A DNA stretch of 64,000 nt from a virus: the IMG/VR virus record IMGVR_UViG_3300042806_000370; one strand, written 5' to 3'. Shown piece after piece: positions 1,000 to 30,666 of this stretch. The notes under the pieces were generated by a model. The model searched no databases. It was not told where the DNA came from and worked only from the letters and a program-made list of their open reading frames with translations. A program made the position numbers and the translations under genes. Within the stretch, counting starts at the first letter, position 1. Each line of letters opens with the position of its first letter.

Positions 1000-3324
1000 A
1001 TGGAAAATACTTGGTTTGATAAAAATTTCATGGAAATGTACCAGAACGATGTTCTACCTTTTATAGAAAAGAAGATCAATGAGGGGTATTTCTTAAAGCA
1101 AGAAATTGCTTCTCAAAGAATGGAAAGAGCTAGAAATCGAGCTAGAAATAATAGAACTGATAGAGATCAGTTGCTCAAGAACAGAATTCTAAGAGCAAAA
1201 CAAGCCAGGGCCAGAGGCGAAGCAAGAGCAAAAGATGCTTTGGCGAAACAGCCAATCAGTAAACCAATTTACGAAAACTGGTTTGAGATTTTTGAAAATA
1301 AACAATCAGGTAAGACCAGAAGAAAAAGAGATAAGTTTAGAGGTCTAAAAGATTTCCGCAAGGATTTTAAATTATCAACTTCTATGTCTTTGACAGGTGG
1401 CAAGAAAGAGAAAGATAGAATAAGAAAAAATATCGAAAACAAACTAAACGAAAATATTTCGATACAATCAAGAAGATACATTTATGAACAAGAAGAAGAA
1501 ATTGGACAAGAACCAACAGAAAAAACAATCCTCGCTCCAGAAGAAAGCCAGCAACCAAAAGAAATTGCTACAGCAGCTGATTATGTTTTCACATTTGAAC
1601 AACTTAGACCTCTTCGAAAGAAAGTAAAAAACGTATTTGAGAATCTAAGCAACATTTCATATAAAATGTTGGCTGATACTCTTGGCGTTTTTTCTATCAG
1701 TAAAGACGATAAAGAATTTCAATTAGAAAACGCATTAGTTCTTGTGTCCAGAGTTTCATCTGGTGCTTCTCAGCAAGAAATAGAATTAATGAGAAATTTC
1801 GATGATGAAAGATTCTTTGATTTTGATGAAGCATCATTTGATATGGCAAGAAAGCTGCTTTCTTATCTTGGGGAATCTTGCTTTCAGAACATCTACCATG
1901 TAGATGAACTAAGCGTAGTCGAAGACTTTCCTGGCTTCAAGCGTTCGTGTTTAGTATGCGGAGATAATGCATTTAGAGTCGTAGTCGGCAAGGTTTATAT
2001 CAAAGACTCTACTGATTCCCCCAATTATGGAATCAAGATGCAGAATATAATAAATTCTCTTCTTCCTATTGCCATTCCACAAGATCCAGAAATATTGGAT
2101 GATGATGGTCTTTCAATTGTGTTGGCTGATGTCAAGAAGAGTATGCTCAACCTTTCTTTGTTCCTTGTTAATGACATTGACGAAGATCCAACACAAGATG
2201 AAGCATTCATGGACTATCTCGACAAGAATGGTCTTTTAGACGATGAGGGTTATATCTTAAATGAAGCTAAGTTATCTTCATATAATGATATGATCGAAAT
2301 AGCAATCCAAGAGCTTTCGAAGAAAAAATCAATAATAAAGGATTCTGCTTTCTTTGGAACAATAGTCAAGGAATTGACTCGCCACTATCTTGTTGGCGTG
2401 AATGCCCAAGATATCAGAGCAAATGCTACTCACTTGCTAACAGACAATGGCCTATTCATAATAACTGAAGATATGATCAATTATTATGCTCAGATGGCAG
2501 ATGTAAATATAAAAGTAAAATCAGCCATAGGCTCTAATAAAGGAAGAAAAAAGAACGGAAATAAAGTTCCAAAAGCATTGGAAAAATTTAGAGCAATAGT
2601 TGAACAAGTAAAAGAAGAATTAAAGCCTTCAAAGAACTACAAAGATAGATTGATCAATACCGCAGAATTGATAGCTGAATCTGATGCATCAATATATCAA
2701 GCCATACTAAACACATTTGATTTTGAATATAGCTTGGCATTGAATCCGGGAGAAAAAATAACTCCAAGCCAAAAAAAGAGTGCAGAATTTAATGTGGTAA
2801 AAATTGGTAATAAAGAATTTAAAATTCCAATTTCAATTGATAAGGGAGATATGACAACCATCTTCATTAAAGAAGATATCGATGATGCGTGTGATTATAT
2901 TCTATCAAACACAAACATCAGCGAAAGTGCTAAACGAAGAATACAGAATTCAAAGAAGACTGGAAATGTTCCACAGGATTTAGTAGAACTTATTTCTTTT
3001 GTCATAAGCCAAAATAGAAGTAAAAGAAAGTCTACTATTCTTGAGAAGCTTCAGGGACATGAGAAGCACTATTCAAAAAAAACTAGCCATCACAGATCAA
3101 ATAGAAATAAGGCTAGAAGAGCCGCAGAAAAAAAATGGGGTAAAGCCGCAATCAAAGGTAAGGATGTGGACCACAAAGACGGCAACCCCATGAATAACTC
3201 GCCAAGTAATCTTCGTCTAAGAAGTCCTGGTGACAATAGAGCTGATAATGGTCATCACAAGGGAGAACCTTACAAGAAGGCCAAGCGCGGAATCACGAAT
3301 ACCTATAAGGGAAAGGATAAGTAA
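1000..3324 (+). CDS. Large late protein with C-terminal HNH-type domain; putative head-packaged protein
   Basis: DVDHKDGNPMNNSPSNLRLRSPGDNR near C-terminus; late promoter; several [IL]xE motifs. Confidence 0.6.
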   Translation: MENTWFDKNFMEMYQNDVLPFIEKKINEGYFLKQEIASQRMERARNRARNNRTDRDQLLKNRILRAKQARARGEARAKDALAKQPISKPIYENWFEIFENKQSGKTRRKRDKFRGLKDFRKDFKLSTSMSLTGGKKEKDRIRKNIENKLNENISIQSRRYIYEQEEEIGQEPTEKTILAPEESQQPKEIATAADYVFTFEQLRPLRKKVKNVFENLSNISYKMLADTLGVFSISKDDKEFQLENALVLVSRVSSGASQQEIELMRNFDDERFFDFDEASFDMARKLLSYLGESCFQNIYHVDELSVVEDFPGFKRSCLVCGDNAFRVVVGKVYIKDSTDSPNYGIKMQNIINSLLPIAIPQDPEILDDDGLSIVLADVKKSMLNLSLFLVNDIDEDPTQDEAFMDYLDKNGLLDDEGYILNEAKLSSYNDMIEIAIQELSKKKSIIKDSAFFGTIVKELTRHYLVGVNAQDIRANATHLLTDNGLFIITEDMINYYAQMADVNIKVKSAIGSNKGRKKNGNKVPKALEKFRAIVEQVKEELKPSKNYKDRLINTAELIAESDASIYQAILNTFDFEYSLALNPGEKITPSQKKSAEFNVVKIGNKEFKIPISIDKGDMTTIFIKEDIDDACDYILSNTNISESAKRRIQNSKKTGNVPQDLVELISFVISQNRSKRKSTILEKLQGHEKHYSKKTSHHRSNRNKARRAAEKKWGKAAIKGKDVDHKDGNPMNNSPSNLRLRSPGDNRADNGHHKGEPYKKAKRGITNTYKGKDK

Positions 3325-12791: not shown

Positions 12792-13493
12792 TTACTTCGT
12801 CAGTTCCTGCCAAGAGACAGGAAAACAGGGCTGAATTAGCTGCCCAATAGCCGAAGCGTATTCCCGGACTTCCCATTGTGCATGGGGGTCGATTCTTTGC
12901 TTAAAAACGCGCGCATAAGCGGCCAGAGAACCCGTCCAGTACCATTCGGTGTATGTACCCTGGGGTAGGGCGAAACGGGCCTGTTCCGGGGCTACGCCAG
13001 CCTCTAGGAGCCAGCTGTAGGTCTTTAGGGCATCGCTAGCCACCCCAAAGTACATGGCCTCAGCAGCCGCTACCGTGTCTTCATTAGTAATGAAGTCTTC
13101 TGACCCCTGCTTTGCCCCATTTGTGGGCTTAGACCGCCATTTTGGAATGTAAATTTCTGGTTCTTCGGTTACATACCGACGAGAAATTTCATTCTCAACG
13201 AAACCAACTTTCGATTTAAAAAGCTGGGTTCGAATCGAAATCGGGGCCTTGATGTGAAGCATGATCTGGGGATGTGCGAACGGTGTCCAGTGTTTATGTG
13301 TTGCTAAGTACGAAATTAGTTTTTTATCCTTTTCGCACAAACTTGTCTTAGGTACATGAGAATCCTCATAATCCCAAGACGATTCTTTATGGAATGATAC
13401 TCTGGCAGCATTAACAACTGTTAGATCGCTTCCCATCCAATCGATCATACGAACAAATCCTTTATCTAACACTTGAAGGGTTTTCTCACTCAT
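12792..13493 (-). CDS. thyX: Flavin-dependent thymidylate synthase
   Basis: VNAARVS, HWTPFAH, NEISRRY, ARFALPQ, HAQWEVR. Confidence 0.95.
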   Translation of the reverse strand: MSEKTLQVLDKGFVRMIDWMGSDLTVVNAARVSFHKESSWDYEDSHVPKTSLCEKDKKLISYLATHKHWTPFAHPQIMLHIKAPISIRTQLFKSKVGFVENEISRRYVTEEPEIYIPKWRSKPTNGAKQGSEDFITNEDTVAAAEAMYFGVASDALKTYSWLLEAGVAPEQARFALPQGTYTEWYWTGSLAAYARVFKQRIDPHAQWEVREYASAIGQLIQPCFPVSWQELTK

Positions 13494-13938
13494 AATATTC
13501 TTCCTGTTTTTTATATGTTATTCCGTTATTATGGAGTATTTCTTGTAAATATCTTACATAGGGGGTGTTTGAATTGTTTACAAAATAATTACTCCATCGC
13601 AAATTTGAAACTAAATTATTTTTAGGATTGCCGTCTATGTGATCTACAATTGGTTGATTGTTCGGGTTTGGTATAAAATGTTCGGCCACAATCCTGTGTA
13701 TAAGTTTTGAACCATTAGATCTTCCATTTTTATAAAAATTCACTGCTAAATGACCAGAATCACAAACTGGTATAAGTTTTAGTTCTTTACCTTTAAAAGT
13801 TCTTTTTCGCAAAAACTGTTTTTTATTTTTACTGAAATTTTTATCGTAAATTATTCTATCTTTAGATTTTATTTTACCGTAATTTGAAACTTCGTAATAG
13901 TCTTCAAAGCCTTTTATGGGTTTCCATATCTCTTCCAT
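13486..13938 (-). mobile_element. Free-standing NUMOD4-HNH homing endonuclease gene
   Basis: EIWKPIKGFEDYYEVSNYG (NUMOD4); HRIVAEHFIPNP...VDHIDGNPKNNLVSNLRW (HNH); more AT-rich than its neighbours. Confidence 0.9.
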
Positions 13939-16928: not shown

Positions 16929-17933
16929 TCAAATCGTGTTAAATTCAAGCTTTGGGTTCTGAAGCTTGTGCATCCAGTAGTCGGCCATCTCTTCCATCAT
17001 CTCTTCGAATGAAATGGTGGGTTCCCATGCCATCTCTCGCTTTGCCTTGCTAGCATCGCCACGAAGATAATGTAGTTCCTCTGGTCGTTCATACTTCTTA
17101 TCGGTCTTGACATACTTACGATAATCCATGCCAAGATGTTCGAATACAAACTCAACCATGTCTTCTACTGAATATGCATATCCGGTAGCAAGAACATAAT
17201 CGTCTGCCTTTGGCATCTGAAGCATGTTCCACATTCCACGCACATAATCCTTGGCATGGCCCCAGTCTCTCTTTGCTCGTAGATTTCCTAGAACAAGTTC
17301 ATTTTCCATACCCAACTTGATCTTTGCTGCCTGGAGAGCGACCTTGTTGGTTACGAAGTTGATGCCTCTGCGTGGAGATTCGTGATTGAATAGAATCCCT
17401 GAGCAAATAAACATGCCATATGCATTTCTATAGTTGTGGCAAAGATTGTGAGCATAAAGTTTTGCACAGCCATATGGACTCACAGGACTCATATGAGTAG
17501 TTTCTCTCTGGTATCCATCAGAGTCACAAGAATTTCCGAACATCTCAGAAGTGGCTGCATGATAAACCTTAGTCTTTGGTGAAAATCTACGAACTGCTTC
17601 AAGTACCGCCAGAGTACCACCACCATTCACATCAAGAGTATACTTTGGAAGATCGAATGAAATCTGAACATGAGACTGTGCTGCTATATGATATAGTTCA
17701 TCTGGCTGAAGCTTCTGTACATTCGTTTCAATGCTGATTGGATCGGTAAGATCTGCATAGTGAAGCTGAATCTTTCCTTGCTCCCAAACACTATTAATGC
17801 GAGTGGTCTGAGATTCTGGAACAGAGTTTCTACGAACTGTTCCATGAACTTCATATCCCTTCTCAACAAGCATCTCTGCAAGATAAGAAGCGTCCTGGCC
17901 ATTGGCCCCGATGATAAGTGCTTTCTTAGCCAT
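16929..17933 (-). CDS. gmd: GDP-mannose 4,6-dehydratase
   Basis: [56 protein letters not shown]; start set to MAKKALI. Confidence 0.95.
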
Positions 17934-18936
17934 ACTTGAATTCCTCCTGAACCTTTTCATCAATTTGCTTTAGAATATCAGCGGTGAAATACTTCTCAGG
18001 TTCCTCGTTGATATGCTTTTCAAACACCTTAGTACCATCAGGAAGTTCAATCTTAGTAGAGTTCTTCTTGAAGATACCACAATCCAAGGCAAGGTCAACA
18101 AGACCGTAGTAACGATTCAGACCGCTATCGAAGTTCAGTTGAACCTGAACGATCTTGTTTTCCTTGGTTAGTCGGCTCTTGTAAAGTTTGCAAGTAATTA
18201 GATTACCTACAACTTCATCATCCTGCTTATCCTTCTTCTTGGATAGAGTTACGATAGTAGAAGCCGCATATTTTAGACCAGATCCACCACCAAGTTCCTT
18301 TGTCGGAACATAGGCTCCTACTACATCGTAGGTGTGATTCGTCATGAGCATGGGAATCTTTGCCTTACCCAACTTCAGGGTAAGAACACGGAAGGTTCCC
18401 TTGATAACCTGTGCGCGCGTCATGTCGCGGGTATTCTTGCCTTCAGCCACATCGTTCATTTCCTTCGCTGTGCTCAACATGCCCAGAGAGTCAAGGACAA
18501 TCATCATTGGCTTGCGCTCCGATTCGTCTGTTGCAAGAACCTTGTCAACGATGGTGAGGCACTGATGGCGAAACTCTTCAACTGTTTCGACGGGGAACAC
18601 GGCAACGCGCTTGGGATCTACACCGCGCTCAGTGAACATGTCACTGGTGACTGCCTGCTCAGTGTCGAAGTAAAGAACTACGCCTTCCGGGTTCGCTGCC
18701 AGAAATTGTGCCACGATACCAATGCTGAAGTAAGTCTTGCCAGTAGCAGATTCACCAGCGAGACAGGTAATCTTGTTATTAGGTAGACCATCGAATAGAC
18801 TACCAGATAGCAGAGCATTAAACACATAAGACCCAGTATCAATGTAGCCGCCAACATCAGATCCATCAAGTCCATCTTCGACTCTACTTGCGAATTTGTT
18901 TCCCGATGCATTAATCATTTCCTTTAAAAAATCCAT
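17926..18936 (-). CDS. uvsX: RecA-like recombinase
   Basis: [37 protein letters not shown]. Confidence 0.95.
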
Positions 18937-22971: not shown

Positions 22972-23522
22972 GTCCATATTGACTGCCAAATACCCAACCA
23001 ATTACAAATATTACCGTATTTTTGTTGAATCAATTGAGCGTATTCCTGTTCGTTTAATGGATTTTCCCCTGTCCATGTATCAAACCAAGCGCAATCCCAT
23101 GTACCATTTGGTTGCCATGTTTCAACATCATCTACTACTAAATTAAATCTATTATCCTTTGGACAATGATCCCAAACCAAGTCAATAACATCTTGATTTT
23201 TTTCAATTATAGTAACTGATGTTATGTTTGGATCTTGTATCAATTTATGATTTACTAGACCAAGACCAAGACCACCGATTAAAACATCTCCAGTCATATT
23301 ATCCCACAGCGGTTGATGTTCTGCATATTCACTATAAGTATCCGACATTACAAATTTTATATCATCATGAAATAAGAAAGTGTAATCGTCGTGCGGTTCT
23401 GTCTTGCCACCACAGGAAGATCCAAAAACATCAGTGTATATGGTATTAGAATCGCCAGTAGCTTTTCTTATAGACCATTTGCCAGAAGTTCCAATTGGAA
23501 TATTCACTTTTATTCTTGTCAT
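22968..23522 (-). CDS. Class I SAM-dependent methyltransferase-like protein (spermidine-synthase-like fold)
   Basis: VLIGGLGLG, VTIIEKN, WFDTW. Confidence 0.75.
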   Translation of the reverse strand: MTRIKVNIPIGTSGKWSIRKATGDSNTIYTDVFGSSCGGKTEPHDDYTFLFHDDIKFVMSDTYSEYAEHQPLWDNMTGDVLIGGLGLGLVNHKLIQDPNITSVTIIEKNQDVIDLVWDHCPKDNRFNLVVDDVETWQPNGTWDCAWFDTWTGENPLNEQEYAQLIQQKYGNICNWLGIWQSIWT

Positions 23523-24274
23523 CCGTATGCCTTTATTCTTACTTGTCCTGCACCGCCAGCACCGCCGTTTGCGCTAATAACCGAGGAGTTGAATCCACCG
23601 CCACCACCGTTTCCGGGTTGAGATCCTGTTCCGCCTACTGTACTTCCTGATGTTCCTCCTGCGGCAACAGTTGTATTTCCAAAAACAGAAGATCCACCAT
23701 TAAGTGCTCCGTTACCACCATTGCTTGTTGATGTTCCCGGAGCACCACCATTAGATCCAGTTCCTCCGTTTGTATTTACATCTCCATTGGATGCAACTCC
23801 AGCAGAACCACCCGAAGCAGTAGTGTTGTATGTTGATTCTGTTTCACCGCCACCACCACCACCAGCAGTTGGTACTGTAGTAAACAAAATTGTATTGCCG
23901 CTTCTAGTGTGAGAATTCAAAGTAGTTGATGTGCCGCTTCCTCCAGAATTTGTTCCGCTTCCTGCACTTCCGGCAGTACCTACAGTAAAATTCAAAGTAT
24001 CATTAGCTTGCAAACCACCTTGCAAACTGCCTCTATAAGTGTATTTTACATACGCACCGCCACCACCACCGCCACCGCCATGATATCTTGTATTTCTTCC
24101 AGAAGTTAATGTTCTCCCTGCTCCACCGCCACCACCGCCACCAACTATTTCAATTTCAAGATAGATTGTTCCGGCAGGAACTGTATAGTTTTGTGATCCC
24201 GTGGATGTTATATCGGTTGTTGATATTAGGCGAGGAGTACGAATATACCCCGCCTTGAATGATGGAATTATCAT
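23519..24274 (-). CDS. Glycine-rich fibre-associated protein, putative adhesin
   Basis: YTVPAGT..LEIEIVGGGGGGG, further poly-Gly blocks, GGAGGAGQVRIKAY terminus. Confidence 0.75.
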   Translation of the reverse strand: MIIPSFKAGYIRTPRLISTTDITSTGSQNYTVPAGTIYLEIEIVGGGGGGGAGRTLTSGRNTRYHGGGGGGGGAYVKYTYRGSLQGGLQANDTLNFTVGTAGSAGSGTNSGGSGTSTTLNSHTRSGNTILFTTVPTAGGGGGGETESTYNTTASGGSAGVASNGDVNTNGGTGSNGGAPGTSTSNGGNGALNGGSSVFGNTTVAAGGTSGSTVGGTGSQPGNGGGGGFNSSVISANGGAGGAGQVRIKAYG

Positions 24275-27000
24275 GTGGATAGTGTTCCGGCAATGTTGTA
24301 AATATTGCTAGAATAAGATATAATCGTTGCAGCACCATGCTGACCAGCAAGTTTTAATAATCCACCATAACTGTTTAATGTCACGCCAGCGGCAGCAGTA
24401 AATCCAACTTGTCCAGCACCTAATTGAATTGCTGTACAATTAAATCCAACAGGAAGTCCAGTTGGAATTGTAACAGTAACGGCAGACGCATTATTGAATG
24501 TTAGAATTTCCCCGTTATCAGTGCTTAATATAGAATATGTTGTTCCTGTTTGTGTGTTAATTGCACTTGAGGAAATTCTATATCCTGTATCAGAAGAGAC
24601 TGTTCCTGCAAATGTTGCACCAGAAGAAGCACTCAATCCACCAGGAAGATTCAATGTTCCATAAATTGTCGCTGATACTTGTGCTGTAGCACCAATGACT
24701 GCTGTGTTTGATCCAAGACCTAAAGCATTTGTTCCTATTACAATTTCGTTTGTTTGTCCGTTGGCAGATGCCCTTGACCACTGGCCAATATAAATTCCGC
24801 CTGTCCCCGTTGTTCTGTTAGAAACAACATTTGGTTCTTCGTTATCTAAATCGTTTGGAAAAAGAATATCTAAATCGCCACGATATGCTCCTGCTGCATG
24901 ACCAATGGCAACATTTGCTACACCAGAACTATTCTTTTCCAAAGCCAGATAACCAATTGCTACATTTCTAAATCCAGTAGTAGTGTTTTGTAGAGAAGAT
25001 GATCCTATTGCAGTATTCTGCTCGCTTGCTGTAGACGATGAAAGAGCAAGAGAACCTATAGCAACATTAACGGAGCCATTTTCATTTTCATCTAGTGCGT
25101 TTGCTCCTATAGCAACATTATTGATTCCTCCTTGAATATCTCTCGCTGCATGATATCCTATTGCAACATTATTGATTGCACCAGTAGAATCGCGCATTGC
25201 CTCTCTACCTATAGCAACATTGAATGTTCCTGACGGACATGCAGTTGCGCCGATTACTACACTATTCTGATCTCCAGCTGCACCTATTCCGACACGAATT
25301 CCGTTGATTGTTATATCACTTGCAAATGTAACTCCACCAGATCCAGAAATTCCCTGTGTGAATTGTTGCAATCCACTAAATGACTGAGCGATGTTGGTAA
25401 AGGCAACATTTGTAATAGCACCAGTAAATCCATTGATGGATGATACACCCTGAATAGCACCAGTATTTCCGTTAAAAGAAAGAACACCTGTATTAGTAAT
25501 AGTTACGGAACCAGTCGCACCTGATACAGAAATACCTGTTCCAGCAGCAGCGGCAGATACTCCTTGAACCGCACCCGTCAGACCATTAAAAGAATAAACT
25601 AAAGGTAATTGAGAAACTGATTTGTTTTCCCAACCAGTAAGTCCGTCAACATAAGTCAACACTTGGTAGTCAATTAGAGGAGATGATATAATAACATCCG
25701 TGAGGTCATCCAGAGTTATGGATACTGAACCACCACCGCTTGATGTACTTCTAAAGCTTCCAGACTGAATAATCAATGCATCTGTTGTGTTTGTTAAATC
25801 AGTTGCACCAGACTTGACTATCAAATAACCAGCAAAAATTGCATTTGTTCTTGTATTCTCAATTTCTGAGAAATTTTCTAAGTCTATATTTGCAGCAGCA
25901 ACAGCAATACTAGTATATTCTGCTCTACCATAATAAACACCAAGAAGCGTTGGTGTATTTGGGTAATAGAACAATCTTTGAATGGTATATTTACCACCAG
26001 GAACTGTTGCTAATGTTCCGCTTCCATCATCATATTTTGTCGGATCTATCTCTGTCTGATTTGGAACTGTTATAAAGCTTCCAGCAGTGATACCGCGATA
26101 ATATCTAAAGAATGTACAATCGGTTTGAGCAGGATCTGAAACTACGCTAGGGTCATCAGTATTATTGATCCAGTTTCTACCAAGGCTGAATGCCTTACCA
26201 GAGGTTCTATTGAGTTTTAGATTTGCTCCGTTTGGGGAAATGCTATGGCCAGAAACTTTAATGGGACCGAAAGATCTAATGAACTGTTCATACTGCTTAT
26301 CGGTAGCATAAGCAACATTTGGGTTTGTTCTTGCAAGATTGATGTAAGTTCTTGAAGGATGGACTAACTGGCCTATGATTATAGTAGTTTCTAACTGTTC
26401 ATCGGTATAATATTCGGTTCTTTGCTGTACATTGCCAGACGAGTCAATATAGAGCCAAGTTGTATCTGAAGTTGCAAGATTTGTTACAGTTACTCCGGTC
26501 TGAGATGGCCATGTAACATAATTGAATATGGGCTGTGGATCTGCCGTGTATGTAGATCCTGATGCATGAATTTGGCCTCTTCCAGAAGTTATATCAAATT
26601 GAGCAGTGTTTCCTGCATTTATGGAAATAATTCCACCGTGCAACAGTCCAGTTGCAAGACTTGATGCGTATATGTTTGCGCTAATACCATAAACAGTAGG
26701 AGAGCTAAAAGCAAGCGTATTACCTACAATGCTTATTGACATATCTTGTCCAGCAGATATGCCAACAGCACCGCTTAGTCCGTTAATAGTTGTAACAGCA
26801 CTGGTAATTCCTCCACCAGTACTAGAAGCTGAAATTACTAGAGGCCCAGTCCCATTATAATTTGCAAAACTAATATTTGAACCAGCAGAAATACCATAAA
26901 TGCTCTTATTGACCCACCCATCACCATTATAAATGTAATGAATGCCACCGAAATCATAGGTATTACCGACTGAAGGATTGTTTGGGAAACTAATTGGCAT
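24271..27000 (-). CDS. Tail fibre protein
   Basis: MPISFPNNPSVG..Y.Y.GDGW head; VxSxNGxTGA repeats; about seven NxAIG repeats; QTGTTY...TVTIP..LPVGF C-terminal domain. Confidence 0.85.
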   Translation of the reverse strand: MPISFPNNPSVGNTYDFGGIHYIYNGDGWVNKSIYGISAGSNISFANYNGTGPLVISASSTGGGITSAVTTINGLSGAVGISAGQDMSISIVGNTLAFSSPTVYGISANIYASSLATGLLHGGIISINAGNTAQFDITSGRGQIHASGSTYTADPQPIFNYVTWPSQTGVTVTNLATSDTTWLYIDSSGNVQQRTEYYTDEQLETTIIIGQLVHPSRTYINLARTNPNVAYATDKQYEQFIRSFGPIKVSGHSISPNGANLKLNRTSGKAFSLGRNWINNTDDPSVVSDPAQTDCTFFRYYRGITAGSFITVPNQTEIDPTKYDDGSGTLATVPGGKYTIQRLFYYPNTPTLLGVYYGRAEYTSIAVAAANIDLENFSEIENTRTNAIFAGYLIVKSGATDLTNTTDALIIQSGSFRSTSSGGGSVSITLDDLTDVIISSPLIDYQVLTYVDGLTGWENKSVSQLPLVYSFNGLTGAVQGVSAAAAGTGISVSGATGSVTITNTGVLSFNGNTGAIQGVSSINGFTGAITNVAFTNIAQSFSGLQQFTQGISGSGGVTFASDITINGIRVGIGAAGDQNSVVIGATACPSGTFNVAIGREAMRDSTGAINNVAIGYHAARDIQGGINNVAIGANALDENENGSVNVAIGSLALSSSTASEQNTAIGSSSLQNTTTGFRNVAIGYLALEKNSSGVANVAIGHAAGAYRGDLDILFPNDLDNEEPNVVSNRTTGTGGIYIGQWSRASANGQTNEIVIGTNALGLGSNTAVIGATAQVSATIYGTLNLPGGLSASSGATFAGTVSSDTGYRISSSAINTQTGTTYSILSTDNGEILTFNNASAVTVTIPTGLPVGFNCTAIQLGAGQVGFTAAAGVTLNSYGGLLKLAGQHGAATIISYSSNIYNIAGTLST

Positions 27001-27020: not shown

Positions 27021-28898
27021 TCAGCTGATCCAAACCTGAGATCCGCTTTTAGTTACTGACGTATAGATTATTCCATCATCCGTGTTGTACCATCTATCAC
27101 CTGGGTTTGAAGATGCTGGTGCGGTTAAACCCTCGGTGAAAATACAAGCATAATTTTGTATACTTCCGTCAGGAAATTGTAATCCACCATTCGTAAGCTC
27201 AAGAGAAATAGAACCATTTCCGCTTATGCTAGTAAAAGCATCAATATCTAAAGTTGAAGAATTGATATTTACAGTCGATAGAGCATCTTCAGTTGCTATT
27301 TGAAATATATCAGATTTTTTACCAGCAGTAAAACCATAAGCAAAAATCTTAAATGCGTTTGTTATTCCGTCAGAAATGCCAAAACGCAATTCTGGTGCTT
27401 GACCAAGCAATCCCCAATTAGCAAGAAGAACAGCAAGGTCTGCACCGTTCACAGTTCCGTCTAAATTTACATCCCCAAGCAACCCATTCGTTAATAGCGT
27501 TATCTTTACCCAGGCATCAGGGTTTGTTGCAGTAGTATAATAATAATATGCACCATTACCATCGCCACTATCAACCACCCACGCTAAATCACCATCTTCT
27601 GGATTCGGAGATGCCTGTAAAGCTGTTACATTAGGAAATGATCTTAGTAACTTATAGCCAGAATCAATAGACACTGTTATATTACCAGTTCCTCCAGAAG
27701 GAGAAACTGTTATTCCGTCAGTTCCAGCAATTGATAAAACACCAGTATTGGAATAAGTTATGGTATTATTCGAATATGTTACGCCTATTCCAGAGCCTGC
27801 TGACCATGTGACTCCACCAGTAAATCCATTTGCAGTCAATACCGCTTGTGAAACTGATCCTCCCCCACCAACAGCATCAACTCTTACATTAGAACCTATT
27901 CTGGTTACATTTAGATTGTCACCGAAATCTATTACACCTACACCAGTTCTAACTACTATACTTCCCTTACTTCTTACGCCTAAACCGCTACCGCCACTGG
28001 CAAAAAGAGGATCTGAGGCTAGTTTTGAAATTTTTTCGTCAAATAATTTTATATCGACAGAAATGCTTTTTTTCGCTTTATCATAAACTAAAGGATAAGA
28101 AGCAGATAAAAGGCCAGTGTCTCCTTGATCACCCTTATCGCCTTTAGGACCCTGCAATCCTTCGGGACCCTGTTCTCCTTGTATTCCTTGCGGCCCCTGT
28201 GGCCCTCTAGGACCTTGTGGACCCTCTGGACCAACATCCCCCTGTGGGCCTTGTGGTCCTGGTTCTCCAGCTAAACCATCATCCCCCTTAAGCCCCTGTG
28301 GGCCTTGTGGTCCTGGTTCTCCTGCATCTCCTTTATCGCCCTTGTCCCCTTTAGGTCCCTTTGGTCCTTTGGGGCCAATAGAACCAGGTTCTCCCTTATC
28401 TCCTTGCAATCCACGGGGACCCATTGGCCCAGCTGGACCTATTGGGCCAGCAGGACCCATTGGGCCTGGTTCGCCGTCCTTACCGTCCTTGCCATCGGAT
28501 CCTGGAAGGCCATCTGATCCTGGATCCCCTCTTATTCCCTGCAACCCCCTTGGACCAGCTGGACCCTGCATTCCAGGAGATCCAACACTAGGTGCAGCTT
28601 CTATTACAGTTTCTGGTTCCTCAAAAATATTGAGAGGAGCAGACTTTGATGGTATAATAGTAAATTTTTGTTGTATCTTTGGGAGTGGTTGAAAATTTTC
28701 TGTAATCAAACTGTCATTGCTTTTGATAAGCAATATTTCTCCAGTTTCATCTTTTAGAAAATAATTCTTAGTTCCGCCTAATTTATATTCTTTTCCATAC
28801 CACTGAGTAGGAACACATTCAAATACAGAACCTTTTTTTAGATCCTGTATGTCATTTTTTAATATTATCTTTGTTCCAGGCGTAAAACTATTTTTCAT
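27021..28898 (-). CDS. Collagen-like fibre protein with dockerin-type motif
   Basis: 52 uninterrupted Gly-X-Y triplets; [22 protein letters not shown]; C-terminal [14 protein letters not shown]. Confidence 0.85.
28113..28583 (-). repeat. Collagen Gly-X-Y coding repeat
   Basis: GSP GMQ GPA ... GDQ GDT G, counted from the translation. Confidence 0.95.
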
Positions 28899-28901
28899 TT
28901 A

Positions 28902-29027
28902 TCACCTGTAATATACTTCTACAGTAGAGTCCTTCTTGATCTTTATTTTAGAAACAATACCTCTTACTGTTCTTGTTTTTTGCCTGTCGGTGGCTATCTT
29001 TGAAAATTTTTTAATCTTTAACTTCAT
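28902..29027 (-). CDS. 41-aa basic peptide (not in ORF track)
   Basis: ATGA overlap with upstream gene; MKLKIKKFSKIATDRQKTRTVRGIVSKIKIKKDSTVEVYYR; fills the gap exactly. Confidence 0.6.
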   Translation of the reverse strand: MKLKIKKFSKIATDRQKTRTVRGIVSKIKIKKDSTVEVYYR

Positions 29028-29452
29028 AGTAAACCACCATCTTCATTTGATAGTTCAAATCTTCCTCTCAACAATGTATCTGAGAAAGTGTTGCCATTAA
29101 AAATTTCCAAAGAATAAAAATGTCTTCCACTAGGAATACTTCCCATAATATCCGAATCTATGCTAACATAAATTCCACCAGTCAAAGTGGCAAGATTTTC
29201 ATCTTTATTTCTATAAACAAAAGATTTTGAAGAATCGTGAGTCAATCCTCCAGTTCCGGTAGGAACATAATAGGTAACTCCAGTTACACCAGCAATTATT
29301 AAAGTATGCTCATCCATCGGTAAAGCTCTGAAGACGCTAAAGGTAACTTTATCGAATGTTGCAGAAATAGCAGCATCATTTTCATCGTAATAAGTTACAT
29401 GAAAATTAAAATTGTTTCCCTTTATGCCTTCAAGATCTTTTTGTGGAGTCAT
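29024..29452 (-). CDS. BppU-N-like Ig-fold virion accessory protein
   Basis: KGNNFNFHVTY...YVSIDS..MGSIPSGRHFYSLEI...TLLRGRFEL pattern. Confidence 0.6.
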   Translation of the reverse strand: MTPQKDLEGIKGNNFNFHVTYYDENDAAISATFDKVTFSVFRALPMDEHTLIIAGVTGVTYYVPTGTGGLTHDSSKSFVYRNKDENLATLTGGIYVSIDSDIMGSIPSGRHFYSLEIFNGNTFSDTLLRGRFELSNEDGGLL

Positions 29453-30666
29453 ATTCTAGCTTTCTTCTTCTTTTTATTTATCTTCTTTTTTTCCTTTTCT
29501 TTTTGCTTCTCTACCATTTCAGCCATAGCTCTTTCATCTTGAATCTTTGCTACAATATGCTTGTAAGAATTGAAGTTGTTTTGAATTCTTTGTCTATGTT
29601 CTTCTGGAAATTTATTTTCGCAAAGAAGCTTATGACAAATTTGCATTCCCAAGTGAAATTTTCCTACTGAATGGGCAACCGCACCTAATTCATCAAGAAT
29701 GCCCCATGAGTATGGAATTTCTTCTACGAACAAATCATCCATTACTGGTCTTGGAATCTCCAATGCCATGCGCGCATAAATGTATGCTGCCTTTGGCCTG
29801 TCATTCATTCTACAGAGTCTTGCTAATTGATACAGTGGCTCTGCTCTTGTTGGTCTTGCTTCGTATGATCTCATGAACATGTCATAGATTTCATTCCAAG
29901 GATGTTGTAGGAAGACCTTACAAATTGCCATTCTGTAGATAGAGAAAAATATCTCTTCTTCCCAACCACCAAGTTCAGATCTCTTTCTATAAGCCTCAAG
30001 AGCTTTTTCAAATTGGAAAGAATCAAAATAGCTTTGTGCAAGATAAAAATGATATCTTGTATTTGTCGGATCTTCTAAAATTGCCTTTTCTAGAACTTCT
30101 GCATCTCTGGCATACTTTTCCTTCGGATCGATACCTACGTTTCTTGCACCTTCTGTTCTAGCTTCTATGCAATAGTTTCCAGGTAGCTTTTCTATCTTGT
30201 ATGGCTTAGGTTCAGAATCTGGATATTCGTGAAGAATTCCGACATATTTCCAATCCCTATTGTTCTTGAATAGCTGTGTTCTCCACCAAGAAAATTCACC
30301 TCTCTTGAACTGTAAGGTATAAGCATCTGCACTTGCATTTTCTGGTAGCACTAATTCACCGTGTAGGAAGTCATCTGCGTCTATGACCCAAGCATAGTCT
30401 GCCTTGCCTTTGGCGTTCTGGAACGCCTCTGTACGAGAGCCAATACTGTTCCCGTGATTACCGAATCCCTTCCAATCTGACTGGTAAATTTCTCCTGGAA
30501 TATTCTTCTCAGCAAAAAACTTACGAATCATATCCTGAGTTCCATCAGTAGAACCAGTATCTGTGATATCGTAACGGTCAATATACTTGTAAACAGATTC
30601 TAAACAGCGAAGAATAACGTGAGTTTCGTTCTTCACGATCATGCATAGTGTAATTGTTGGTTTCAT
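29449..30666 (-). CDS. GT2 glycosyltransferase with TPR-like repeats
   Basis: LCMIVKNE, DTGSTDGT, IDADD, GILHE; RYHFYLAQSY, RAEPLYQLA. Confidence 0.9.
   Translation of the reverse strand: MKPTITLCMIVKNETHVILRCLESVYKYIDRYDITDTGSTDGTQDMIRKFFAEKNIPGEIYQSDWKGFGNHGNSIGSRTEAFQNAKGKADYAWVIDADDFLHGELVLPENASADAYTLQFKRGEFSWWRTQLFKNNRDWKYVGILHEYPDSEPKPYKIEKLPGNYCIEARTEGARNVGIDPKEKYARDAEVLEKAILEDPTNTRYHFYLAQSYFDSFQFEKALEAYRKRSELGGWEEEIFFSIYRMAICKVFLQHPWNEIYDMFMRSYEARPTRAEPLYQLARLCRMNDRPKAAYIYARMALEIPRPVMDDLFVEEIPYSWGILDELGAVAHSVGKFHLGMQICHKLLCENKFPEEHRQRIQNNFNSYKHIVAKIQDERAMAEMVEKQKEKEKKKINKKKKKARI

Follow-up and report, generated by a model that had tools for sequence, protein, structure and literature searches.

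An uncultured T4-like phage from freshwater has a dockerin-type F-hand in a collagen-like fibre, which may point to Phycisphaerales

Type I dockerins (Pfam Dockerin_1, PF00404) consist of two tandem repeats of ~22 residues each, stand at the end of secreted enzymes and pair with cohesins. Cohesin and dockerin modules occur in freshwater Phycisphaerae, for which a surface complex (the 'planctosome') has been proposed (Andrei et al. 2019, PMC6461901). Collagen-like fibres, in which a Gly-X-Y rod lies between globular ends, are known from T4-like cyanomyoviruses and other phages, where they are encoded in fibre clusters and built of mosaic modules. For most T4-like phages of freshwater no host is known (PMC4360716), and in the literature consulted we found neither a described phage of Planctomycetota nor dockerin-type repeats in tail fibres. 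Here we analyse a 64,000-nucleotide stretch of viral DNA (IMG/VR record IMGVR_UViG_3300042806_000370; hereafter the window), in which a collagen-like tail-fibre gene encodes one dockerin-type repeat. Our overall reading, to which we give a probability of roughly 55%, is that an old dockerin-type F-hand sits in the trimeric collagen-like fibre of an uncultured freshwater T4-like phage and points to Phycisphaerales. A single F-hand would be built into a ~160-residue module of this trimeric fibre, would bind one Ca2+, and would reflect a long-standing exchange of genes with Phycisphaerales, which the phage may well infect. Exchange and infection are suggested by the spelling of the repeat (its 'WG' form), by its recurrence in related phages and by a subtilase of Phycisphaerae type that some of these phages encode.

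The motif and the fibre module that carries it

The motif and its predicted parts are as follows:

27411..27476, minus strand: the motif, [22 protein letters not shown], residues 475-496 of the fibre protein P0001, located by translation and regular expression; a dockerin-type F-hand (Ca loop and start of helix)
27438..27473, minus strand: predicted 12-residue Ca-binding loop, D476-D487, from the sequence and a strict regular expression
27405..27446, minus strand: predicted exiting helix, residues ~485-498, from the AlphaFold2 (AF2) model of alignment A2, at low confidence (pLDDT about 58-64)

A preliminary description of this DNA had placed a single motif in the C-terminal third of the fibre, at 27411-27476. 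Translation reproduces it exactly there, at 76-79% of the length of P0001, and a six-frame regular-expression scan of the 64-kb window found no second copy. The back-translated motif pattern matches once in the window and in none of 100 dinucleotide-preserving shuffles, even with up to two mismatches, and the reversed motif pattern has no match across all genomes searched. The loop follows the EF-hand/F-hand site pattern, with acidic or amide residues at positions 1 (D476), 3 (N478), 5 (D480), 9 (N484) and 12 (D487), a backbone ligand at position 7 (T482), glycine at position 6 (G481) and a hydrophobic residue at position 8 (V483). We take this ligand assignment to follow the established EF-hand/dockerin pattern, and the loop would then bind one Ca2+ through D476, N478, D480, the carbonyl of T482, N484 and D487. 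The loop also agrees with the dockerin consensus, D-x-N-x-D-G-x-[VI]-[ND]-x-x-D, and the helix expected after it is the low-confidence one listed above.

The profile of alignment A2 matches solved dockerins (2y3n_B, E 7e-7; 8ajy_B, 1.8e-5; 6kg9_A, 2.6e-5), while calmodulin EF-hands trail at E 0.3 or worse. These dockerin matches are confined to profile positions ~52-85, and both dockerin repeats align to the single phage segment. On the motif itself, PF00404 covers profile positions 2-18 of 57 with 15.5 bits (cut-off 22.9; E 0.02). What the fibre shares with type I dockerins is therefore the 12-residue Ca loop D-x-N-x-D-G-x-V-N-x-x-D and the helix after it, at E 7e-7 to 3e-5; unlike the dockerins, whose two repeats terminate secreted enzymes, it has one internal repeat that scores below the Pfam cut-off. 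As judged from these comparisons, the motif is a single dockerin-type F-hand, that is, a Ca loop plus helix, and not a dockerin domain.

The fibre gene can be divided into the following parts:

27021..28898, minus strand: collagen-like tail-fibre gene P0001, 625 residues, from the list of open reading frames (ORFs) and translation
28584..28898, minus strand: N-terminal domain, residues 1-105, kept in P0003, P0004, P0008, P0017, P0019 and P0021 (alignment A1)
28113..28583, minus strand: collagen Gly-X-Y region, residues ~106-262, from Pfam PF01391 and readable as Gly-X-Y in the translation
27159..27641, minus strand: fibre module carrying the motif, ~160 residues (420-580), from alignments A1 and A2
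27159..27308, minus strand: predicted trimer-interface segment, beta-rich, residues 531-580, from the three-copy complex prediction
27024..27158, minus strand: C-terminal tip, residues 581-625, with a [16 protein letters not shown]-type motif, shared with P0008, P0017, P0019 and P0021, which are without the module

An N-terminal domain, a Gly-X-Y collagen region and a non-collagen C-terminal half thus make up the protein, which is found in identical form on 11 metagenome contigs. Pfam Collagen matches it at E 1.6e-26 and 92.2 bits (cut-off 27.2), and its PHROG matches are tail-fibre families, mostly reached via the collagen part. The close full-length homologues P0003 and P0004 retain the motif. 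P0005 and P0006 share with P0001 only the ~160-residue module, set in other N- and C-terminal contexts, and P0008, P0017, P0019 and P0021 share the N terminus, the collagen region and the tip and have no module. The distribution of the module is thus mosaic, some fibres having it and others not. In alignment A2, which holds 12 module sequences 29-98% identical to P0001, D476, G481, G485, D487 and G496 are invariant (D57, G62, G66, D68 and G77 in module numbering) and at least 90% of the rows retain W495 (W76); distant phage relatives conserve the module at 29-42% identity. All module carriers inspected are fibre clusters of related T4-like phages with homologues of thyX, RNR, primase and the glycosyltransferase GT2-TPR, and the GC content of these phages is 0.31-0.51. 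Among 1.84 billion representative proteins, about eleven clusters match the module beyond the motif; the other ~225 matches cover the loop-helix alone, usually twice or more per protein, and likeness to cellular proteins ends after ~30 residues. The exact motif form is rare in viruses: of 2.9 million viral contigs only 5 hold it, in each case within this module. These alignments argue that the F-hand is an integral, old part of the ~160-residue fibre module.

The preliminary description had proposed that the motif was captured from, or mimics, a host surface module, and on capture the data point the other way. Had the motif been taken recently from a gene of a planctomycete host, this would account for a spelling identical to that of Phycisphaerales repeats and for a 43-nt stretch 84% identical to a motif copy in the Phycisphaerales genome G381. 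However, an 84% nucleotide match is expected from the constrained codons alone, the motif is kept in relatives at 29-42% module identity, and its flanks have no cellular homologues. The GC content is 0.47 for the motif, 0.385 for the module and 0.36 for the phage, against 0.52-0.75 (median 0.67) for the bacterial motif loci, so that nothing in the composition of motif or module hints at DNA that came recently from a genome of 0.67 GC. Because the repeat is single, internal and lies inside a module kept across distant phage relatives, we find no support for a recent capture, which conservation, flanks and GC content largely refute and which we consider extremely improbable.

The AF2 model of A2 places the loop (module residues 52-65) and the helix (66-79) between beta strands, with a mean pLDDT of 63 for the module monomer, too low to support a fold search. 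When three copies were predicted together with Ca, the prediction passed its mark: ipSAE was 0.46 (best control 0.00), contact agreement between runs was at least 71% and partner pLDDT at least 61. In calibration, 20 of 30 solved one-chain pairs and 1 of 23 single chains reached the ipSAE mark, counts that hold only roughly here because a custom alignment and a riding Ca ligand were used. A trimeric rod is also implied by the collagen Gly-X-Y region. The confident contacts of the trimer are found only at module residues 112-161 (P0001 531-580), downstream of the loop-helix, and the model therefore does not fix the F-hand as surface or buried. The F-hand may only stiffen the fibre or may also contact a partner.

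Distribution of the repeat in bacteria and related phages

We scanned one genome per species for 185,579 species with the exact form D-x-N-x-D-G-x-V-N-G-A-D-L-x-x-L-L-x-x-W-G, which gave at least 120 stretches. Among those listed, 107 carry Planctomycetota titles (72 Phycisphaer*, 35 other Planctomycetota names); the remainder are six Chitinophaga, four unnamed and one each titled Actinomycetota, Bacteroidia and Bacteriovoracaceae. Of 121 genomes sampled directly from one Phycisphaerales order, 24 had the exact form, some with as many as 44 copies. None of 300 other Planctomycetota genomes had it (relaxed form, none of 150), nor did any of 150 further genomes from the phylum to which the Actinomycetota-titled metagenome-assembled genome (MAG) belongs. 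The MAG titled 'Chitinophaga pinensis' (record CALQCP02...; loci L012, L061, L094, L116 and L118) has 15 motif copies; its title appears to be wrong, since it is without SusD and a sample of its order consists of the very genomes obtained for the Phycisphaerales MAG G001. The 'Bacteroidia' MAG12 (G002) is likewise without SusD. In the unbiased protein search, one member of the top motif-only cluster bears the name Planctomycetaceae bacterium. Thus, the spelling marks near-exclusively a part of one Phycisphaerales order, not the whole phylum. The preliminary description had called it typical of secreted Phycisphaerae or Planctomycetota proteins, which these counts bear out: among the matches listed, the taxonomy is overwhelmingly that of Phycisphaerales and not broad.

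In bacteria the repeats form tandem pairs at the extreme C terminus of proteins with signal-peptide-like N termini, usually ending WGxCP, and PF00404 covers both repeats (profile 2-52) at 18.5-25.3 bits in four of the six proteins tested, exceeding 22.9 in three. Five Phycisphaerales genomes (G381, G392, G312, G306 and G001) hold 15-44 exact WG-repeat copies each, and G001 has 41 relaxed copies. The phage motif shares with these repeats their exact spelling, including G-A-D-L, L-L and W-G; it differs from them in being single and internal, where the bacterial repeats are C-terminal pairs with a WGxCP end in DNA of GC 0.52-0.75.

It is possible, though in our view less probable than a link to Phycisphaerales, that the loop holds no host information, being an old structural Ca site of phages related to dockerins by deep shared ancestry or by convergence, in a phage of a low-GC freshwater host from another phylum. 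Seven of the 13 fixed residues of the motif belong to the generic EF-hand/dockerin loop, and the A2 profile also matches Firmicutes dockerins that end in FG. The divergence of the module (29-42% identity) in phages of such varied GC suggests age and possibly several hosts. Against this stands the location of the Phycisphaerales-specific part, which is the helix half (G-A-D-L..L-L..W-G), and the recurrence of this type of repeat in many proteins of related phages, among them a secreted subtilase of Phycisphaerae-type architecture. The relaxed WG form occurs in 60 viral contigs of GC 0.31-0.54, in at least six protein families:

WG-repeat family 1: this fibre module
WG-repeat family 2: other collagen fibres, with one repeat
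WG-repeat family 3: ~360-residue proteins with tandem pairs (L151, L161, L178 and others)
WG-repeat family 4: ~200-residue proteins with tandem pairs (L149, L158, L185, L191 and others)
WG-repeat family 5: large baseplate-region proteins
WG-repeat family 6: proteins of ~471 residues that combine a signal peptide and a subtilisin (S8) domain with a pair at the C terminus, which ends in WGACP

About 30 of the 55 newly fetched WG-carrying contigs have T4-like genes in common with the window. The major capsid protein (MCP) of the window has a counterpart in all five large WG records, at 60-66% identity by the search tool and 56-62% by tblastn, and psbA is absent from these five records, which are therefore not cyanophage-like. 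The MCP tree places the window beside G650 (97/94) and G648 (85/87), both carriers of WG repeats, and all three lie outside the clade of cyanophages and Melnitz (95/97); G650 is also syntenic with the window across 32 ORFs at ~47% identity. In families 3 and 4 the WG pairs are C-terminal, and the genes often lie near thyX/RNR or a DUF7207 gene.

The subtilase gene adjoins the major capsid gene in several of these phages (L163:680-2092; also L160, L177, L203, L157 and L164). Its best match in the Phycisphaerales order has E 2e-132 and 50% identity over residues 45-470 of 471, the dockerin pair included. At E <= 1e-50 it was found in 16 of 121 genomes of this order, in 12 of 201 of the Planctomycetota phylum sample, there with the catalytic part only, and in none of 151 Actinomycetota. 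When 5.8 billion proteins were searched, phage-like homologues ranked first (57-99% identity), and the sole organism-named matches were Phycisphaeraceae (52%), Planctomycetes (49%) and Phycisphaerae (48%), all with C-terminal dockerin pairs. Another T4-like phage has a homologue of 55% identity. The unpublished genome G400 contributed a weak subtilase match to one table, and none of our conclusions depends on it.

A further alternative is that the loop functions in docking: the fibre would attach in a Ca-dependent manner, as would the dockerin-pair proteins of related phages, to a cohesin-like scaffold on the host surface, of the 'planctosome' type, or on the virion. The cohesin/dockerin modules and the proposed surface complex of freshwater Phycisphaerae (PMC6461901) would fit such a role, as would the signal-peptide proteins of related phages that end in Phycisphaerales-style dockerin pairs. 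On the other side, the fibre has one repeat only where solved dockerins use two, no partner is known, and Pfam cohesin (PF00963), the partner of type I dockerins, was not found in the five most motif-rich Phycisphaerales genomes and gave sub-threshold matches only in five large viral records. We consider docking unlikely. Equally doubtful is its extension to a broad freshwater T4-like group that would infect Phycisphaerales by docking Ca-dependently, through host-type F-hands in fibres, the subtilase and other proteins, onto the receptor to which the bacteria would attach their own dockerin-tagged surface proteins; were this true, it would be a dockerin-based attachment of phages to their host.

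Phage genome and candidate host

The window has the genes of a T4-like myovirus: gp23, gp20, gp43, a DnaB-like helicase, a gp46-like gene, UvsW, UvsX, thyX and RNR were identified through PHROG and Pfam, and gp23, gp20, gp43, gp46-like, UvsX, UvsW and baseplate genes stand in T4-like order. Its gp43 and gp23 are 52-56% identical to those of the closest cultured phages, which are cyanomyoviruses (best MCP, 56%). Membership of the far-T4 group is ruled out by an MCP 55-56% identical to cyanophage gp23. The fibre differs from the collagen fibres of cyanomyoviruses in its non-collagen part: tblastn against 50,697 GenBank phage records matched nothing of it except the C-terminal tip, weakly, in cyanophage structural proteins (E 0.07). 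In the same records, megablast of 20 kb gave no match, and neither did tblastn of the 37-residue motif region at E <= 10, the query being too short to score.

From the spelling and from the dockerin-bearing genes of related phages, we tentatively name Phycisphaerales as the leading host candidate, at somewhat less than even odds; the case is indirect and should be read as a lead rather than a result. Lineage-specific modules are shared between this order and the phage group, namely the WG repeat, which recurs in related phages, and the subtilase. A phage contig with the module (L004) and a motif-bearing Phycisphaerales MAG (L105) come from one metagenome, 3300044639, and the record names suggest that the sampled lakes are Mendota and Tanganyika. 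The logic is that of crAssphage, in which a protein with a surface module typical of one bacterial lineage, the BACON domain, was reportedly taken as a clue to a Bacteroides host. Our case is weaker, because the piece shared here is ~22-30 residues long and not a whole domain.

Direct genomic links to a host were sought in several ways. A tRNA scan found none, no MCP was present in 201 genomes of the Phycisphaerales order (nor again in 121), a result that carries no information on the host, and positions 20001-60000 of the window had no spacer-like match in 141 genomes of this order. The only short DNA matches of that search were a poly-Gly run (24055-24084), the motif itself (84% over 43 nt, in G381) and collagen repeats. 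The poly-Gly run consists of eight glycine codons on the minus strand, within the ORF 23519-24274 (Pfam Gly_rich_2), and has near-exact matches of 23-28 nt in many high-GC genomes, which could be mistaken for spacer hits. These negative results, together with a GC of 0.36 in the phage and of 0.52-0.75 in the bacterial loci, favour a loop without host information. The GC mismatch, however, is normal for T4-like cyanophages, which at ~38% GC infect Synechococcus of ~60% GC, and is therefore weak as counter-evidence.

Several other observations weigh against a dockerin-type F-hand that points to Phycisphaerales. Firstly, the motif lacks the two tandem repeats of a PF00404 dockerin and stays below the gathering cut-off of that family, the loop is poorly modelled by AF2 (pLDDT about 58-64), and the cohesin search described above, in five bacterial genomes and five viral records, gave at most sub-threshold matches. 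Secondly, the order of the species scan is unknown, and Pseudomonadota, Verrucomicrobiota, Cyanobacteriota and genuine Bacteroidota lay outside the direct sampling. Thirdly, the WG-repeat carriers other than G650 and G648 are not resolved as one clade in the MCP tree, and two carriers are small non-T4 phages. Lastly, the subtilase gene is not in the window, and the full-length MCPs of its carriers are ~57-59% identical to that of the window by tblastn (65% for a partial match of L164), against 55-56% for cyanophages.

Surroundings of the fibre gene and implications

The fibre gene is flanked by:

24271..27000, minus strand: second fibre gene P0002, 909 residues, downstream of P0001, matching PHROG tail fibre / tail spike families outside any collagen region
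29024..30666, minus strand: 142-residue ORF and GT2-TPR glycosyltransferase, upstream of P0001, from gene calls and Pfam families on identical contigs

A P0002-type gene is co-located with the module gene in relatives, where homologues of the 142-residue ORF and GT2-TPR (52-54% identical) also adjoin module-bearing fibres. With flanking genes of fibre type, P0002 and the 142-residue ORF, the locus is a fibre gene cluster, and P0001 combines this with a long Gly-X-Y region and a trimer model, as expected of a collagen-like phage tail fibre. The strand opposite the fibre gene holds two long ORFs (27760-28086 and 28342-28692, both plus strand), which are most likely by-products of repetitive collagen coding sequence rather than genes. 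The collagen stretch 28186-28323 resembles a repeated collagen-like stretch of a Phycisphaerales genome (G358:C3:170499-170770) at 67-71% DNA identity. Elsewhere in the window, a GDP-mannose 4,6-dehydratase (16929-17963, minus strand, 379 bits) lies between the helicase gene and uvsX, separate from the main sugar-gene cluster at 29.4-39.2 kb, which has a GC of 0.24-0.27; as a clue to a donor the dehydratase was rejected, its matches forming a flat field of 72-76% identity without organism names. An HNH/NUMOD4 homing-endonuclease domain stands free beside thyX (13486-13938, minus strand), and such a domain also ends a 774-residue protein (1000-3324, plus strand).

A half-dockerin can thus be part of a phage fibre. 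A signature that connects one Phycisphaerae order with lake phages of a definable group provides a concrete, testable host hypothesis, for which both partners are supplied by the same lakes, Mendota and Tanganyika. Binding of the loop or of the dockerin pairs to a scaffold of the host, should it occur, would be a new type of receptor recognition and would help in identifying the partner of the abundant dockerins of Phycisphaerales.

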